From Mobula hypostoma (Eukaryota), in contig NC_086108.1 of the NCBI RefSeq assembly GCF_963921235.1, forward strand, positions 31,684,001-31,748,000: a stretch of DNA of 64,000 nt. The letters run 5' to 3'. Shown one piece after another: positions 2,340-43,477 of the stretch (position 1 is the stretch's first letter; each line of letters opens with the position of its first letter). The notes below the pieces were generated by a model that was not told where the DNA came from, made no database searches, and saw only the letters and a list, made by a program, of their open reading frames with translations. Both the position numbers and the translations under genes were made by a program.

Positions 2340-2516
2340 ATGTAGGCACAGGTGTGTGCATGTATGCATGCTTTTGTGAATGTGTGCATCTCTGCATGCA
2401 CATGCATGTCTGCATATCTGTCTGCACATGTTTGTGTGTGTTTGTGTAGGTGTATCTCTGTGGATGCATGTCTGTGTGTGTCTTTGTGTGTATCTTGTGA
2501 GATTCTGTGTGTGAGA

Positions 2517-2565
<49 letters not shown>
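2340..2565. repeat. TG-rich low-complexity tract ending in a pure (TG)n microsatellite
   Basis: Direct reading; pure (GT)n at about 2519-2565. It explains the THTHTH/CVCVCV ORFs. Confidence 0.95.
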
Positions 2566-2566
<1 letters not shown>

Positions 2567-2573
2567 TCGCATG

Positions 2574-2993
2574 TGTAGTACCCCTGAAAAAGTATATGGT
2601 GGATGAAACATACTGTATATATGCTGTACTGTTCATCCATCAGTAACTTTGGTGATGAGTACAATACGTACTCCCCCCTCCCCACCTCCCCACCTCCCCC
2701 CGCCGAAAATACAACATTCTGGCAGGCATGAGCGAGCAATCAATCACGTGCTGGAGATTGAATACAAGCCCTTACAAGTCAATAGCAGATTCAGTGCTCA
2801 ATAATATAAGAGAACATCTTGCGCACAGATTTTCAGAATTTTCAACTAAACACATCTGCATGTTTTAATAATAATATCCTTTTTTTCTCAATTTGGAATG
2901 ATACTCACATTAAATAAATAATTTTAACTCTTTTTAAAATTATTTGATCAATTATTTATAATTAAATTGAACAGATTTCAACCTTGTCACACA
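2574..2993 (-). repeat. 3' LTR of Gypsy A
   Basis: Similar along its length to 14600-14978, with TG...CA termini; adjacent to the polypurine tract. Confidence 0.85.
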
Positions 2994-3699
2994 CTCCTCC
3001 TCCCGCCATCTCCTCCCAGTGTTAGGCTTGCAATGACTACTTTCCTTGTGTGAAACATTCCTTTAGTTTCTAGTAGTCACATGGTAGTTGACATAGGAAC
3101 TGAGGCAAAGTAGCCATTAAGTCATTCACGATACACAATTATCAGGCAAGGCCTGAACTGATGTGGCCTGCACAGTCTACAGTCTGTATGTTGTGGCATT
3201 TGGGAGCCCCAACCCTAGCGTAAGCAAAGTGTTTTGGTGGCTGTCGTTCTCTCTGAGGAAACTTTGAGCTCCCTTGTCTTTGCTCCACCTGGATGTCTGG
3301 CTCATCGTTCACAAGAGTAAATACAGGAACTGGTATTGATTCACATCAGGAAAATCACTTGGGTCACTTGATTCGGATGAGGGTATAGGGACTGGTAGTG
3401 ATTCACAATCGGGCAAGTCAAGTAGGCTACTTGATACAGATGAAGATACAGGGACTGGGACTGGTCCACATGCAGGAAAGTTCATCAGCTGTTCCTTCTC
3501 TGGCATTTGTTGTTGGAAGTATTGTGAATCTTCAGCCCTCATTTGCTGCTCAGCAGGTTGTATAGGCTCTACTCCAAAACCATTGCAGTCCTTGCTGCTG
3601 TGAGGTTGGAGACATTCAGCTTGGTAGTAATATTCATCCTCACTGTCGCTGTCTGGCTCACTCTCTTCCCTCCCTTCAGGTGGACGAGCCCTGGTGCTG

Positions 3700-4330
3700 C
3701 ATTTGGCAGACACCCTTGCTTTGTTGCGGTTTCCATTTGTGGTTTAACATCCAAAGGCAGGTGTTCACAAGGCATGAAGAAGCTGGCAATGTAGTACCCT
3801 GGATCTTCCTTTGCCTTGTTCAGGTTTTACTTCATAGATTGGTACATCCTCCCCAATTTTTTGTGCAACAATATGAATGCAGTCTTCCCAATAGTTTTGA
3901 AGCTTCTGTGGGAGTCAGATTCTTTACTAGGGTACGATCCCCCTGGTTGTAATGCTATAAATCTTACTCTGCTCTCATAATTTCTCTAGTTCTCCCCGAG
4001 ACCTTCTGCATGTACTCCTTGGCAATCTTAGGGTCTTCTTGCATGCCTCTTTTCCATCTTTCCAAGTATTTGCTGTGGGTTGCAGGACTTGTGTCAGTGT
4101 TCAGGCCAAAGAATATATCTATGGGCAACCTCAGCAATCTACCAAAGAGAAGGTAGAACGGAGAAAATCCTGTTACTTCCGACCTTGTACTGTTGTAAGC
4201 ATAGACCATTTTATTCAATGACTCTTTCCGATGTTCTTTTGTCTTTCTGTTAGTGTTTTCAACATTTGCAGAAGGGTCCAGATGAAACTCTCAACTTGTC
4301 CATTTCCCTGTGGGTGGTACGGTGTAGTTC
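3700..4330 (-). pseudogene. pol: Gypsy A integrase C-terminal part
   Basis: RTTPYHPQGNGQVESF motif at about 4285-4332; ORF 3964-4218 (MVYAYNST..TGFSPFYLLFGRLLRLPID). Confidence 0.8.
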
Positions 4331-4477
4331 CTGTCCATTTCCCTTTGGCAGTACGTGTAGATATTGTTAATTTCCCTGGGGATGGTACAGTGTTACTCTT
4401 ATCTATTTCCCTGGGAGTGGTGCAGTGTAGTTCTTGTCCATTTCCCTGGAAGTGGTAGAGTGTAGTTCTTGTCCATT
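4295..4477. repeat. 35-bp tandem repeat, left part (about 5 copies plus a partial one)
   Basis: Unit CTTGTCCATTTCCCTGTGGGTGGTACGGTGTAGTT; the array continues at 9541-9620 beyond the nested element. Confidence 0.85.
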
Positions 4478-4857
4478 TGTCATGGTCCCACCTGGCAATT
4501 CCCCATCTGCTATTACCTCCTTAATTGGGCCTTAATTCCCTCATCTGATTTCCAATCATTCCCAGTTCCACTGATTACAGCACACCTGGTTCCCATTAGC
4601 GAACATAGGATAAAACTCGGGCAACTTTGCCAGTTTGTTGGTTGACTTTAGTGTGAGTAAACCTTGTTTCCTGATTCCTTAGGACTATCAGTTCTAAGCT
4701 CTGCATCATTTCCTGGATACTCTATGTAAACCTTGTCTCTGTGTAAAGACACTCCTGGATACCAGTTCCCCGTTCGCGGCGGTGCTAATGCCTCACGACT
4801 CTGCCTCTGCGCCTGTGTCCTGCACTTGGGTTTGTCCTCAGCCTCGTCCTTGCAACA
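4478..4857 (+). repeat. 5' LTR of Gypsy B
   Basis: TG...CA termini; matches the sequence from 9222 onward. Confidence 0.9.
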
Positions 4858-38979: not shown

Positions 38980-41900
38980 TCAACAAACTCATTCGTAAGG
39001 CCAGTGATGTTGTGGGGATGGAACTGGAGTCTCTGACGGTGGTGTCTGAAAAGAGGATGCTGTCCAAGTTGCATGCCATCTTGGACAATGTCTCCCATCC
39101 CCTACATAATGTACTGGGTGAGCACAGGAGTACATTCAGCCAGAGACTCATTCCACCGAGATGCAACACAGAGCGTCATAGGAAGTCATTCCTGCCTGTG
39201 GCCATCAAACTTTACAACTCCTCCCTTGGAAGGTCAGACACCCTGAGCCGATAGGCTGCTCCTGGACTTATTTCCTGTCATAATTTACATATTACTATTT
39301 AACTATTTATAGAACATAGAATAGTACAGCACAGTACAGGCCCTTCGGCCCACAATGTTGTGCCGACCGTCAAACCCTGCCTCCCATATCAGCCCCCACT
39401 TTAAATTCCTCCATATACCTGTCCAGTAGTCTCTTAAACTTCACTAGTGTATCTGCCTCCACCACTGACTCAGGCAGTGCATTCCACGCACCAACCACTC
39501 TCTGAGTAAAAAACCTTCCTCCAATATCCCCCTTGAACTTCCCACCCCTTACCTTAAAGCCATGTCCTCTTGTATTGAGCAGTGGTGCCCTGGGGAAGAG
39601 GCGCTGGCTATCCACTCTATCTATTCCTCTTATTATCTTGTACACCTCTATCATGTCTCCTCTCATCCTCCTTCTCTCCAAAGAGCAAAGCCCTAGCTCC
39701 CTTAATCTCTGATCATAATGCATACTTCCTAAACCAGGCAGCATCCTGGTAAATCTCCTCTGTACCCTTTCCAATGCTTCCACATCCTTCCTATAGTGAG
39801 GTGACCAGAAATGGACACAGTACTCCAAGTGTGGCCTAACCAGAGTTTTATAGAGCTGCATTATTACATCACGACTCTTAAACTCTATCCCTCGACTTAA
39901 GAAAGCTAACACCCCATAAGCTTTCTTAACTACCCTATCCACCTGTGAGGCAACTTTCAGGGATCTGCGGACATGTACCCTGAGATCCCTCTGTTCCTCC
40001 ACGCTCCCAAGTATCCTGCCATTTACTTTGTACTCTGCCTTGGAGTTTGTCCTTCCAAAGTGTACCACCTCACACTTCTCCGGGTTGAACTCCATCTGCC
40101 ACTTCTCAGCCCACTTCTGCATCCTATCAATGTCTCTCTGCAATCTTTGACCATCCTCTACACTATCTACAACACCACCAACCTTTGTGTCATCTGCAAA
40201 CTTGCCAACCCACCCTTCTACCCCAACATCCAGGTCGTTAATAAAAATCACGAAAAGTAGAGGTCCCAGAACAGATCCTTATGGGACACCACTAGTCACA
40301 ATCCTCCAATCTGAATGTACTCTCTCCACCACCACCCTCTGCCTTCTGCAGGCAAGCCAATTCTGAATCCACCTGGCCAAACTTCCCTGGATTCCATGCC
40401 TTCTAACTTTCTGAATAAGCCCACCGTGTGGAACGTTGTCGAATGCCTTACTGAAATCCATATAGATCACATCCACTGCACTACCCTCATCTATATGCCT
40501 GGTCACCTCTTCAAAGAATTCTATCAGGCTTGTTAGACACGATCTGCCCTTCACAAAGCCATGTTGACTGTCCCTGATCAGACCATGATTCTCTAAATGC
40601 CTATAGATCCTATCTCTAAGAATCTTTTCCAACAGCTTTCCCACCACAGACGTAAGGCTCACTGGTCTATAATTACTCGGACTATCCCTACTACCTGTTT
40701 TGAACAAGGGGACAACATTCGCCTCCCTCCAGTCCTCCGGTACCATTCCCGTGGACAATGAGGACATAAAGATCCTAGCCAGAGGCTCAGCAATCTCTTC
40801 CCTCACCTCATGGAGCAGCCTGGGGAATATTCCATCAGGCCCCGGGGACTTATCTGTCCTAACTTATTTTAACAACTCCAACACCTCCTCTCCCTTAATA
40901 TCAACATGCTCCAAAACATCAACCTCACTCATGTTGTCCTCACCATCATCAAGCTCCCTCTCATTGGTGAATACTGAAGAGAAGTATTCATTAAGGACCT
41001 CGCTCACTTCCACAGCCTCCAGGCACATCTTCCCAGCTTTATCTCTAATCGGTCCTACCTTCACTCCTGTCATCCTTTTTTTCTTCACATAATTGAAGAA
41101 TGCCTTGGGGTTTTCCTTTACCCTGCTCGCCAAGGCCTTCTCATGCCCCCTTCTTGCTCTTCTCAGCCCCTTCTTAAGCTCCTTTCTTGCTTCCCTATAT
41201 TCCTCAATAGACCCATCTGATCCTTGCTTCCTAAACCTCATGTATGCTGCCTTCTTCCACCTGACTAGATTTTCCACCTCACTTGTCACCCATGGTTCCT
41301 TCACCCTACCATTCTTTATCTTCCTCACCGGGACAAATTTATCCCTAACATCCAGCAAGAGATCTCTAAACATCGACCACATGTCCATAGTCCATTTCCC
41401 TGCAAAAACATCATCCCAATTCACACCCGCAAGTTCTAGGCTTATAGCCTCATAATTTGCCTTTCCCCAATTAAAAACTTCCCTGTCCTCTCTGATTCTA
41501 TCCTTTTCCATGATAATGCTAAAGGCCAGAGAGCGATGATCACTGTCCCCCAGATGCTCACCCACTGAGAGATCTGTGACCTGACCCGGTTCATTTCCCA
41601 GTACTAGATCTAGTATGGCATTCCCCCTGGTCAGTCTGTCCACATACTGTGACAGGAATCTGTCCTGGACACACTTAACAAACTCTGCCTCATCTGAACC
41701 CTTGGAACTAATCAGGTGCCAATCAATATTAAGGAAGTTAAAGTCACCCATGATAACAACCCTGTTATTTTTGCACCTTTCCAAAATCTGCCTCCCAATC
41801 TGCTCCTCTGTATCTCTGCTGCTACCAGGGGGCCTATAGAATACCCCCAGTAGAGTAACTGCTCCCTTCCTGTTCCTGACTTCCACCCATATTGACTCAA

Positions 41901-42190
41901 AAGAGGATCCTGTTACATTACTCACCCTTTCTGTAGCTGTAATAGTATCCCTGACCAGTAATTTCACCCCTCCTCCCCTATTTCCACCCTCTCTATCCCT
42001 TTTAAAGCACTGAAATCCAGGAATATTGAGAATCCATTCCTGCCCTGGTGCCCGCCAAGTCTCTGTAATGGCCACTACATCATAATTCCATTATGGTTTT
42101 ATTACTATTTATTATTTATGGTGCAACTCTAAGGAAAATCAATTTCCCCCGGGATCAATAAAGTATGACTATGACTTTGCCTATGACTAT
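38980..42190 (+). mobile_element. Rex1/Babar-type LINE 3' end (different subfamily), split by a CR1
   Basis: ORF 38949-39254 LNKLIRKASDVVG..SHPLH..RCNTERHRKSFLPVAIKLYN. The UTR breaks at 39310 and resumes at 42091, ending AATAAAG(TATGAC)n. Confidence 0.8.
39311..42090 (-). mobile_element. Young CR1/HER1 LINE, 5'-truncated, with near-intact ORF2 (APE endonuclease plus RT)
   Basis: ORFs 40864-42075, 40279-40806 and 39370-40251 share one frame, separated by two stop codons. Motifs AITETW, GDFN, LDL, SDH, QHGF and FADD. TTAT on both flanks. Confidence 0.95.
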
Positions 42191-42816
42191 GCCCCATGCT
42201 GCACAGAACATCGCATGTCATTTGTGAAAGAAGGCTCCAAGTCAAGTGTGTACAGCGCAGGCTCACGATCAAGCATACATTCTTCAGCCAATGATTGGTG
42301 TGTCAAGGCCGACCTGGACGGGAAAGGCAGTTTCCCGGAGCAAATAGCTTTCACCACATTGCGTCCAGATATAATCGTATGGTCTGACACCAGTAGAGAA
42401 GTGGTTATTGGTGAACTCACAGTCCCCTGGTAAGACAACATCGATGAAGCCCATGAGTGCAAGTTAACCAAGTACGCAGAGTTAAGATCAGAGCGCAGAG
42501 ACAGAGGGTGGAAGGTCTCATGCTATCCATTCGAAGTAGGCTGCCGTGGGTTTATTGTATTCACTCTCCAGAAGTGGCTGCGTGACCTTGGCTTCACTAG
42601 AAGAGAGATCAAGTCAACCAGCAGGGCTGTAGCTGAGGCAGCAGAGAAAGGATCAGCATGGGTGTGGACCAATTACGTCCAGCGGGGCAGATAGTCAGAC
42701 AGTGTATACATATCTTGCAAACCCTTCAGTAGTTGCATAGACACCTGAAGAGCAGACTATCTGTTGGATAGAAGTGACCAACAACTCTGATAGAGGCAGA
42801 TGCCAAGTTTTTAAGC

Positions 42817-42935
42817 TCACCAGTGGGAGGTGGTGCTTTAGCACTGCTGGCCCACCACCTCGAAGGAGTCTTGATCATAAGCGGGCCGAAACTCCTGAAG
42901 ACAGGTGGCAGATCAACTGATGATACCACTGGTGA
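42817..42935 (+). ncRNA. Candidate pseudoknotted hammerhead-like RNA in the Hero 3' UTR
   Basis: AGGAG-UC-UUGAUC (42864-42876), GGGCC-GAAA-CUCCU (42883-42896) and GAUCAA-CUGAUGA (42911-42923), enclosed by a 10-bp helix (42817-42826 with 42926-42935). Confidence 0.55.
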
Positions 42936-42981
42936 TAGCACAGGACAGTTAACATCTTAGTCCACATGTATTTTGTAACTC

Positions 42982-43185
42982 CGAGATAGAGTGCGGAATA
43001 GGCCCATCTGGCTCTTTGAGCTGGGCCGCCCAGCAATCCCCCAATTTAATCCTAGCCTAATCACAGGGCAATTTACAATGATTGATTAACCTACCAACCA
43101 GTACCGGGGAGAAGGTACATACTCCTTACAGTAGCAACAGGAAATGAAACTGGATTGCTGGTACTGTAAAGCGTTATGCCACCCG
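42982..43185 (-). mobile_element. V-domain SINE (HE1-like), internally deleted
   Basis: Minus strand has a tRNA-like head, GGAGTATGTACCTTCTCCCCG (V-domain-like) and a CR1-type 3' tail. Confidence 0.6.
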
Positions 43186-43477
43186 ATGTATAAGTGGGTG
43201 CTAGCAATTCCAGCTACTATCAATCCAGTGCTGAATATCACTACAACACTCAACTTTACCCTACAATCCTCAATGTCTTCTTTCAGCTCTGGATCTTACA
43301 ACAATACATTACCTCACAGTCCTGTAAAGGATATATTTTCTTCATATTTTATTCGACTGGGTAAATTTAGTCTATCAGAGCTCTGCAGGCACTCAGAGCA
43401 AATCCACCAATCCTCATCCTTTGTTTTGTTTCTTGGAACCCACGCTCTTTCCTCTGCTCATAAACTTAAACACACCC

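Follow-up and report, generated by a model that had tools for sequence, protein, structure and literature searches.

The window analysed here, a 64-kb stretch (64,000 nucleotides, nt) of the Mobula hypostoma genome on contig NC_086108.1, carries a copy of a Hero-like non-LTR retrotransposon (LTR, long terminal repeat), and the segment 42817–42935 in the 3′ untranslated region (UTR) of this copy is probably a native module of the element, namely a hammerhead ribozyme in a non-circularly permuted strand order. As the preliminary description of this DNA had proposed, the hammerhead core is genuine and conserved, and the order of its strands is no circular permutation of that in types I, II and III; cleavage of the RNA is deduced from the letters of the core and from its published relatives.

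The copy is truncated at its 5′ end and has a fixed 3′ end, since homology to other genomic copies begins at 42189 and ends at 42981. A search of the M. hypostoma genome (3.48 Gb in 200 contigs) with a query of 557 nt returned 1,760 first-look candidates, and the element is present in more than 1,600 candidate copies. The 40 scored matches, which include the window copy, showed 96–100% identity (96–97% for the 39 others) and ended at query positions 541–552, corresponding to 42974–42985 of the window and mostly to 42981. Sixteen genomic copies that were fetched matched the window element from 42189 (10/16) or from a later position up to 42981, with 94.6–97.0% identity; their flanks diverge beyond 42981, and the 3′ end is not followed by poly(A).

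Two open stretches, 42086–42433 and 42434–42694, precede the motif on the plus strand, the stop codon occupying 42692–42694. Pfam assigned no family to either of them. The C-terminus of the element, when aligned with those of 28 relatives, shows the invariant columns R-P-D, E-L..P and K...Y, a PD..E..K-like pattern, and the longest fetched genomic copy (L017) contains RVT_1 and zf-RVT domains in pieces of the open reading frame (ORF), with stops in between. The C-terminal 290 residues match 39 longer proteins, the named sources being Branchiostoma, Lytechinus, Amphiura and a sea slug. Hero has been described as a clade with a restriction-like endonuclease which occurs in sea urchins, lancelets and fish and is mostly not site-specific (PMC9004415, PMC4640811). 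The earlier assignment of the host to Hero within the R2 group is retained in a modified form: an R2-group element with a putative restriction-like endonuclease fits Hero, its nearest named relatives being those of lancelets and echinoderms, in agreement with the host range given in PMC9004415, but the label “Hero-like” is set by relatives and domains and not by reference Hero sequences.

Table 1. Features of the Hero-like element and of its 3′-UTR motif in the window (A2 and A3 are alignments of relatives; bp, base pairs)
Feature	Positions	Strand	Basis or remark
Hero-like non-LTR retrotransposon copy, 5′-truncated	42189–42981	+	matches to other genomic copies
Last open stretch of the element ORF, C-terminal endonuclease region (putative)	42434–42694	+	aligned to C-termini of 28 relatives
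P0a, 5′ strand of outer helix	42817–42828	+	10 bp in this copy, 12 bp with majority letters
hp, hairpin between P0a and stem II	42829–42848	+	8 bp including three G-U pairs, UUUA loop
Stem II 5′ strand (G10.1 to 10.5), GGCCC, upstream of cleavage site	42849–42853	+	pairs with 42883–42887
P4a, CCACCU, 5′ strand of helix tying far ends of stems I and II	42855–42860	+	pairs with 42903–42908
C-G-A, unbulged strand of kink-turn-like internal loop, GA directly 5′ of stem III	42861–42863	+	sequence signature
Stem III 3′ strand, AGGAGU, ending in U16.1	42864–42869	+	pairs with ACUCCU, 42891–42896
C17 and U1.1, predicted scissile bond between them	42870–42871	+	position in core; GUC ends at 42870
Stem I 3′ strand, UUGAUC	42871–42876	+	pairs with GAUCAA, 42911–42916
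Linker between the distal ends of stems I and II	42877–42882	+	0–8 nt in relatives, often A-rich, e.g. UUAAA
Stem II 3′ strand (11.5 to C11.1), GGGCC	42883–42887	+	pairs with 42849–42853
G12 A13 A14	42888–42890	+	invariant in A2 and A3; GAAA word is 42888–42891
Stem III 5′ strand, ACUCCU, starting with A15.1	42891–42896	+	pairs with 42864–42869
GAA-GA-C, bulged strand of kink-turn-like loop	42897–42902	+	sequence signature
P4b, AGGUGG	42903–42908	+	pairs with 42855–42860
Stem I 5′ strand, GAUCAA	42911–42916	+	abuts CUGAUGA
C3 U4 G5 A6 U7 G8 A9, CUGAUGA	42917–42923	+	six fixed letters invariant in A2 and A3
P0b, 3′ strand of outer helix, after A9	42924–42935	+	pairs with P0a
Tail to element 3′ end, 46 nt, no poly(A)	42936–42981	+	28/32 copies stop at 42981, the other four at 42983, 42985, 42987 and 42980

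Architecture of the 3′-UTR motif

Every helix and core word of the preliminary description was recovered at its position in the window (Table 1). The closing helix, listed there with 10 bp, is present in the window copy, where UCACCAGUGG (42817–42826) pairs with CCACUGGUGA (42926–42935); with the majority letters of the family it extends to 42817–42828/42924–42935 and directly abuts A9. To the helices of that fold a separate hairpin, hp (42829–42848), has to be added. The window copy carries a minority letter at 42864 (A versus G in 47/49 copies) and another at 42925 (A versus C in 16/16 other copies), the latter breaking the pair next to the junction, and leaves 2 nt (42827–42828) between the P0a pairing and hp. 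G10.1 is located 74 nt upstream of A9. The predicted cleavage site lies 176 nt past the stop codon and 111 nt before the 3′ end of the element.

In relatives of the element, the motif consists, in 5′ to 3′ direction, of P0a, hp, the stem II 5′ strand (G10.1), P4a, (N)GA, the stem III 3′ strand (U16.1), H17, the stem I 3′ strand, a linker, the stem II 3′ strand (C11.1), GAA, the stem III 5′ strand (A15.1), NNNGA, P4b, the stem I 5′ strand, CUGANGA, and P0b. Its length is 107–125 nt in most relatives, with linkers of 0–1 nt between the stem II 5′ strand and P4a and of 0–3 nt between P4b and the stem I 5′ strand; the (N)GA before and the NNNGA after stem III are likewise present in most of them. 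The motif fills most of the 3′ UTR and in many relatives begins at or near the stop codon.

The nested fold of 42810–42942 has a predicted energy of –51.5 kcal/mol (z –3.31 versus shuffles) and includes a 9-bp hairpin competing with the motif, which had been suggested to act as a switch. A conserved switch is not supported, the hairpin being specific to the family: compared with its 9 bp in the window copy, the mean over 35 sequences (including the window) is 4.40 bp, versus 4.51 bp in controls with mismatched partners.

Conservation in distant relatives

To collect relatives, metagenomes were searched with 29 aligned C-terminal domains. Of the 602 candidate stretches, 475 passed confirmation, and the 80 best loci, with 34–46% protein identity, were retained. 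The stop codon was reached in 77 of these 80 loci, and the 600 nt past the stop were taken as the 3′ UTR. A strict descriptor of the motif demanded U16.1 followed by H17, a stem I with a minimum of 4 bp that borders on CUGANGA, a GAAA whose last A opens a stem III with a minimum of 5 bp formed with the strand preceding H17, and the order site, GAAA, CUGANGA. On both strands of the whole window it matched once, at the 42817–42935 motif. It also matched the 3′ UTRs of 47 of the 77 relatives, whereas 200 dinucleotide shuffles yielded a mean of 0.02 matching UTRs and a maximum of one; over the whole loci and both strands (509,524 nt) there were 50 matches, none of them on the minus strand. Seven of the 30 UTRs missed by the descriptor have less than 120 nt after the stop, and several others show one mismatch in a stem or in the core. 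Although G was permitted at position 17, the 47 descriptor matches have A (18), U (15) or C (14) and never G at this position, while N7 is U in 25, A in 10, C in eight and G in four of them. The nucleotides C3, U4, G5, A6, G8 and A9 and the GAAA word are invariant in the 33 and 44 relatives aligned in A2 and A3, respectively.

A covariance model which was built with only P3 and P4 as pairs, stems I and II being left out, gave 59 matches at E ≤0.01, corresponding to the window and 58 of the 80 loci, all of them on the ORF strand. Among the 22 loci without a model match, ten are cut by the contig end, and one (L085) is a descriptor match with a long insert. Automatic picking of helices failed for stem II and P4 in L028 and L057 and for P4 in L079, found a P4 of 3 bp in L041, and misplaced the descriptor match in L052. 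L052 was left out of the counts of junctions, loops, kink-turns, P0 and switch hairpins, and L028 and L057 were left out of A3; the covariance model placed all three correctly.

The arrangement is real and conserved far beyond the M. hypostoma family, and chance is excluded. Loss of the core and stems in relatives, or a lack of covariation, would have spoken against the original proposal; both core and stems are kept, and the stems covary, at this degree of protein divergence.

Covariation of the helices

Pairing was assessed in three alignments, i.e., A2 (MAFFT, whole motif, 33 sequences), A3 (core alignment, 44 sequences) and A4 (model-based, 55 distinct sequences). Stems I and III had partly been chosen by the descriptor, and P3/P4 by the model; stem II was part of neither, and stem I was not part of the model. 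Paired cells amounted to 88.1% in A2 (62.2% shuffled, 30–48% with slid partners), 89.2% in A3 (59.3% shuffled) and 92.7% in A4 (61.1% shuffled, 38–45% with slid partners). In A4, both sides of a pair had changed in 374 cells versus 104 in shuffles, and none of 500 shuffles reached the observed value; in A2, changes on both sides occurred at 21 of the 23 pairs of stems I, II, III and P4. Since up to six distinct pair types are found per position, many independent changes must have taken place.

Stem II, the helix free of selection by either search, is paired in 94.5% (A4) and 97.2% (A3) of its cells, with both-side changes at four of its five pairs. The values for A4 are 88.3% for P4 and 94.3% for stem I, both with changes on both sides at all six pairs, and 94.1% for stem III, with such changes at five pairs. 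The 10.1-11.1 pair is G-C in 49 and G-U in five of the 55 sequences of A4, and the U16.1-A15.1 pair is kept in 53 of them. Twelve model matches outside the training alignment have stem II paired in 56/60 and stem I in 57/64 cells; the core word of three of them is mutated, which is to be expected if these copies are dead, and position 16.1 is C in one. Swapping of partners between sequences gave a similar picture: a stem II of at least 5 bp was formed with the own partner in 41/47 cases versus 20% with swapped partners, a P4 of at least 7 bp in 27/47 versus 5%, and a P0 of at least 7 bp anchored directly at A9 in 34/47 relatives versus 12%. The five helices proposed from the single sequence thus all covary across relatives, stems I, II, III and P4 in three alignments and P0 by the partner swap, and stem II is, as had been surmised, no simple hairpin, its covarying partner strand being located upstream of the site.

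Proposed four-way junction, kink-turn-like loop and palindromic hairpin loops

A9 is not continuous with G10.1; instead, the strand after A9 pairs with P0a. In the 35 sequences with a clear P0, the junctions A9-P0b, P0a-hp and hp-stem II comprise zero nucleotides in 31, 32 and 31 cases, respectively. Zero-nucleotide linkers at these three places are what a perfect four-way junction would show, situated where ordinary hammerheads have the A9-G10.1 backbone step.

In a kink-turn, two helices are separated by a bulge of three nucleotides and then by tandem G-A and A-G pairs. The corresponding sequence signature (GA immediately 5′ of stem III and, on the opposite strand, NNNGA after it) occurs in the window and in 28 of 47 distinct relatives, suggesting that the loop between stem III and P4 is kink-turn-like; stem III would then be the C helix, and P4 the NC helix.

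The loop of hp contains a 6-nt palindrome in 19 of 34 sequences (UGAUCA in 14, UGGCCA in four, and UGUACA in one; L027, L029–L031, L034, L038, L040, L041, L043, L044, L050, L058, L059, L062, L067, L079, L081, L084 and L088), as compared to the approximately 6% which, by a rough estimate, would be expected for hp loops of such size. It is absent from the hp loop of the window family (UUUA). That self-complementarity is kept while the centre of the palindrome varies suggests a loop-loop (kissing) interaction of two RNAs, and the palindromic hp loops look like sites of kissing-loop dimerisation.

Comparison with known ribozymes

The order site, GAAA, CUGANGA, which had been considered as possibly new, was published and validated in 2023 as type SGC by Eckert, Friedrich, Weinberg and Weinberg, who divided the hammerhead into the blocks S (site), G (GAAA) and C (CUGAnGA) and reported natural non-circular permutations, validated in vitro, of the types SGC (583 sequences), CSG (two) and GCS (one) (PMC10085705). 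Type-SGC RNAs were described to cleave in vitro at the predicted site and to need all four helices, as demonstrated by compensatory mutants; they have a short linker between stems I and II, the other sides of which are tied by the fourth helix, and in a few of them the close link of this helix to stem III is hard to reconcile with the crystal structure (PMC10085705). The permuted hammerheads came from environmental metatranscriptomes, near hairpin ribozymes, with the sole exception of the type-GCS candidate, found in the RefSeq genome of Caballeronia peredens, a bacterium; text and supplement of PMC10085705 make no link to retrotransposons or animal genomes as hosts, the former word occurring in titles of references only.

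The Hero-like RNA shares with type SGC the cyclic order S (42870), G (42888), C (42917), the conserved letters of the core, the mutual crossing of stems I, II and III, the short linker between the distal ends of stems I and II, and an additional, fourth helix tying the other sides of these stems, here P4, which is closely joined to the far end of stem III. It differs from the type described in PMC10085705 in that its two chain ends are located inside block C, with the 5′ strand of stem II positioned away from CUGANGA and upstream of the site, and in that it has two extra helices, P0 and hp, and a four-way junction at A9/G10.1; moreover, cleavage was shown for the published RNAs, whereas that of the Hero-like RNA is predicted. 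As the pattern searches of Eckert et al. required intact blocks (PMC10085705), they would have missed a motif with a split C block.

The Hero-like RNA has the core letters and the three stems of the classic hammerheads of types I, II and III and also conforms to their H17 rule and to their pairs G10.1-C11.1 and A15.1-U16.1, but its strand order is no circular permutation of theirs, and it lacks a plain three-way junction. Searches against Rfam gave no match at the gathering score in the whole window, and the five weak matches obtained at E ≤10 over 42400–43300 include neither a hammerhead nor another credible family.

Hammerheads are reportedly present in Penelope-like elements and retrozymes (work attributed to Cervera and De la Pena 2014 and Lunse et al. 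2017; also PMC7229834), where they are said to be minimal, to belong to type I, and to act as dimers. The Hero-like RNA resembles them in being located in the non-coding terminal sequence of an animal retroelement; theirs, however, are minimal and dimeric type I motifs in terminal repeats, and they belong to another class of retroelement (with a GIY-YIG endonuclease). Ribozymes resembling that of hepatitis delta virus (HDV) are said to occur at the 5′ ends of R2 and other non-LTR retrotransposons (reportedly Eickbush and Eickbush 2010 and Ruminski et al. 2011). They, too, would represent a self-cleaving class in an R2-group element, with a cut 5′ of most of the fold (predicted in the case of the Hero-like RNA), but they belong to another class and are situated at the 5′ end, releasing the RNA of the element from a co-transcript, whereas the Hero-like site is in the 3′ UTR, 111 nt from the end. 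If the interpretation as a ribozyme is true, an R2-group element would have a ribozyme at its 3′ end, while previously HDV-like ribozymes had reportedly been known from the 5′ end.

The R2 protein binds a pseudoknotted 3′-UTR RNA (PMC12222951). Both systems have a structured, pseudoknotted 3′ UTR at the starting point of reverse transcription, in an element whose endonuclease is restriction-like (putatively so in the Hero-like element); no hammerhead core is known to have been reported for R2, and protein binding by the Hero-like RNA is putative.

Full-text literature, with subscription journals outside the coverage, contained no paper linking a hammerhead to Hero or other elements with restriction-like endonucleases. 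What appears to be new is the host, i.e., 3′ UTRs of animal retrotransposons with the copy number given above for M. hypostoma; the division of the C block in two, in which the 5′ strand of stem II precedes the cleavage site and is joined to A9 via a zero-linker four-way junction formed with P0 and hp; and the kink-turn-like GA/NNNGA loop between stem III and the tying helix P4. Up to now, a single paper is known to document non-circular permutation in structured RNAs, and its examples supported by covariation are from environmental metatranscriptomes only (PMC10085705). The occurrence of a scrambled hammerhead in animal genomes, linked to a defined gene and with a high number of copies, provides a biological setting and many natural variants. 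The three blocks of the hammerhead are not indivisible, so that hidden ribozymes have to be sought in a space wider than the six orders in use at present; in addition, the four-way junction and the kink-turn-like loop offer concrete, testable answers to the question of how a knotted hammerhead folds.

Proposed mechanism and alternative explanations

The best reading of the motif is a hammerhead which probably nicks itself and may double as a protein-bound 3′ module. We infer self-cleavage after C42870 because all catalytic letters are kept, the H17 rule holds, and hammerheads of the same cyclic order cleave (PMC10085705). The rules known for hammerheads apply to the family: position 17 is never G, N7 is free, and the pairs 10.1-11.1 and 15.1-16.1 are G-C and A-U, respectively. 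In the genome, the core is intact in 46–48 of the 48 other copies (CUGAUGA in 48/48, GAAA in 47/48), and the 49 genomic copies show 51 substitutions over the 119 nt of the motif versus 118 over 83 nt of its flanks, i.e., about one third of the density.

The core would fold like that of an ordinary hammerhead, with a perfect four-way junction replacing the A9-G10.1 step, such that stem II might stack under the G12-A9 and A13-G8 pairs, and P0 on hp, while the kink-turn-like loop would bend P4 back from stem III toward stems I and II. The 2′-OH of C42870 is predicted to attack its own phosphate, which would leave a 2′,3′-cyclic phosphate on the ORF-bearing fragment and a 5′-OH on U42871. The products would stay joined by P0, stem II, P4 and stem III, with about 27 bp in total, so that the cut would nick a stable fold and not set the tail free. 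The nicked fold would probably also be bound by the reverse transcriptase of the element.

A number of observations weigh against this interpretation. The A9-G10.1 step is, to our knowledge, unbroken in every hammerhead described so far. In the study of type SGC, the blocks were assumed to be uninterruptible (PMC10085705). The connection of P4 to stems I and II via linkers of 0–3 nt is geometrically tight, a feature which was also noted for a few type-SGC RNAs (PMC10085705). Pairing of stems I and III is partly a consequence of how the sequences were selected, and the rows used for covariation are related to one another, so that the shuffle counts are not probabilities; cleavage is, for all members of the family, a prediction.

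The distribution of genomic copies is a further point on this side. The 39 best matches to the last 111 nt were examined (32 fetched, and seven known to extend upstream), and none of them begins at 42871: the nearest 5′ ends are at 42735 and 42706, all 39 extend at least 136 nt upstream of the site, and all keep the tail. Likewise, an indel at the cleavage site was found in none of 49 genomic copies. Cut 3′ fragments are therefore not common templates, which does not in itself rule out cleavage; templates must have been intact, religated, or nicked and yet read through cleanly. In four sequencing runs, some contigs span the 42870/42871 bond and no accumulation of ends is reported there, but contigs do not reveal RNA ends and are neutral as to cleavage. 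Nor do the genomic copies fit the original idea that the ribozyme processes the 3′ end of the element, as the predicted cut is situated 111 nt inside it. The cut would thus fall within the template, upstream of the tail where reverse transcription must start, a position that, as far as we know, fits no current model of target-primed reverse transcription. Finally, a subfamily which lacks exactly the 12 nt of P0b (42924–42935) has still spread. The deletion is present at eight of eight fetched loci with different flanks (L132–L137, L145 and L146) and in none of 51 copies of the main family; since a master copy without P0b was mobile at no fewer than eight separate places, P0 is not needed for mobility.

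A broader proposal, which we put forward as possible but still doubtful, is that the motif represents a new topological class of hammerhead, ancestral as a 3′-UTR module to a whole clade of animal retrotransposons. Its core would tolerate a four-way junction in place of the A9-G10.1 step, and a kink-turn would turn the extension of stem III back upon stems I and II as a clamp, thereby explaining the puzzling geometry of type SGC as well. The RNA would nick itself while assembled and, in many lineages, might pair with a second copy via the palindromic loop, in the course of choosing or preparing RNA for reverse transcription.

Rather unlikely, though to be taken seriously, is the alternative that the hammerhead-shaped 3′ UTR is a non-catalytic fold, kept only as a binding site of the reverse transcriptase for target-primed reverse transcription. 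The extent of the motif, which occupies most of the 3′ UTR from at or near the stop codon in many relatives, is consistent with such a role, as is the binding of pseudoknotted 3′-UTR RNA by R2 proteins (PMC12222951). The same applies to the genomic copies, none of which is marked by a cut template (39 inspected for their start, 49 for an indel), and to another abundant repeat, described below, which shares only the part from 42892 on and has CUGCUGA for CUGAUGA, suggesting that the tail half alone may serve mobility. A mere scaffold, however, would not need C3, U4, G5, A6, G8, A9, G12, A13 and A14, all of which are kept over the divergence of the 80 loci, and would not exclude G from position 17 (0/47) while accepting A, U and C about equally. 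Besides, binding and catalysis are mutually compatible, and the self-nicking hammerhead proposed here would include both.

It is improbable that the active form is a dimer, in which two RNAs would meet via the hp loop and swap strands, the loop of the stem III-P4 arm of one pairing with the stem I/II strands of the other, relieving the knotted topology. The frequency of palindromes in hp loops, high compared to the rough estimate, would be in line with this assumption, and the minimal hammerheads of Penelope-like elements are reported to act as dimers (Lunse et al. 2017). The window family, in contrast, has spread to its high copy number with a UUUA loop devoid of a palindrome, and all helices can be drawn within one molecule; moreover, the assays of type-SGC ribozymes are described as measuring cleavage in cis (PMC10085705).

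An ordinary type-SGC hammerhead as published, with the 5′ strand of stem II right after CUGANGA, is very hard to reconcile with the pairing data, even though the block order, the short linker between stems I and II, and the fourth helix tying their other sides are the same (PMC10085705). A stem II of this kind was tried and rejected: the strand after A9 can form no more than 2 bp with the one preceding G12 in 45 of 51 sequences, with no pair at all in the window, and instead pairs with P0a, whereas the upstream strand forms at least 4 bp in 49 of 51 and covaries. A chance resemblance inside a structured 3′ UTR, which might be suspected from the shortness of the core words and the lack of any Rfam hammerhead match even at E ≤10, can be dismissed, being refuted by the descriptor matches (47/77 versus 0.02), the covariance model (58/80) and the covariation, and Rfam hammerhead models cannot match a permuted order.

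Related repeats and genomic surroundings

A different repeat of the same genome (L138, L139, L140 and L142) shares only the region 42892–42972 with the Hero-like element, at 83–88% identity, while its own copies are homologous to each other along 480 nt or more. Its counterpart of CUGAUGA reads CUGCUGA, and it contains neither the site nor the GAAA block. In two runs of other organisms, word depth increases from about 100–340 up to 2,400–4,500 over 42890–42960, and loose ends begin at 42892. The repeat may be a non-autonomous partner which borrows the tail; its possession of only the 3′ half hints that this half is what mobility needs.

In one copy of the Hero-like element (L134), which is 5′-truncated at window position 42892, the flanks form a direct repeat of some 44 bp; for a target-site duplication, this is unusually long. 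Among 32 sampled copies, three (L101, L113 and L122) have 5′ truncations within 6 nt of one another, at 42684–42689, just before the stop codon. The base after the 3′ end of the element (42982 onward) is T in 14 of 16 other copies (L001–L016), often as TA, and in two instances a TC/GA-rich simple repeat follows; the T or TA may reflect a weak target preference. In metagenome contigs, two Hero-like elements were observed head to tail on one strand (L043, 3762–5831 versus 23–2101; L090 and L095 on one contig), about 3.7 and 4.4 kb apart. As the two members of the L043 pair are only 67% identical, they are different elements placed end to end and not a recent tandem duplication.

Directly upstream of the Hero-like copy, the minus strand of the window carries an unrelated long interspersed nuclear element (LINE) at 39370–42090, with Exo_endo_phos (an apurinic-type endonuclease) and RVT_1 domains and an ORF interrupted by two stops; some 100 nt lie between the end of the LINE and the position at which the Hero-like copy is 5′-truncated.

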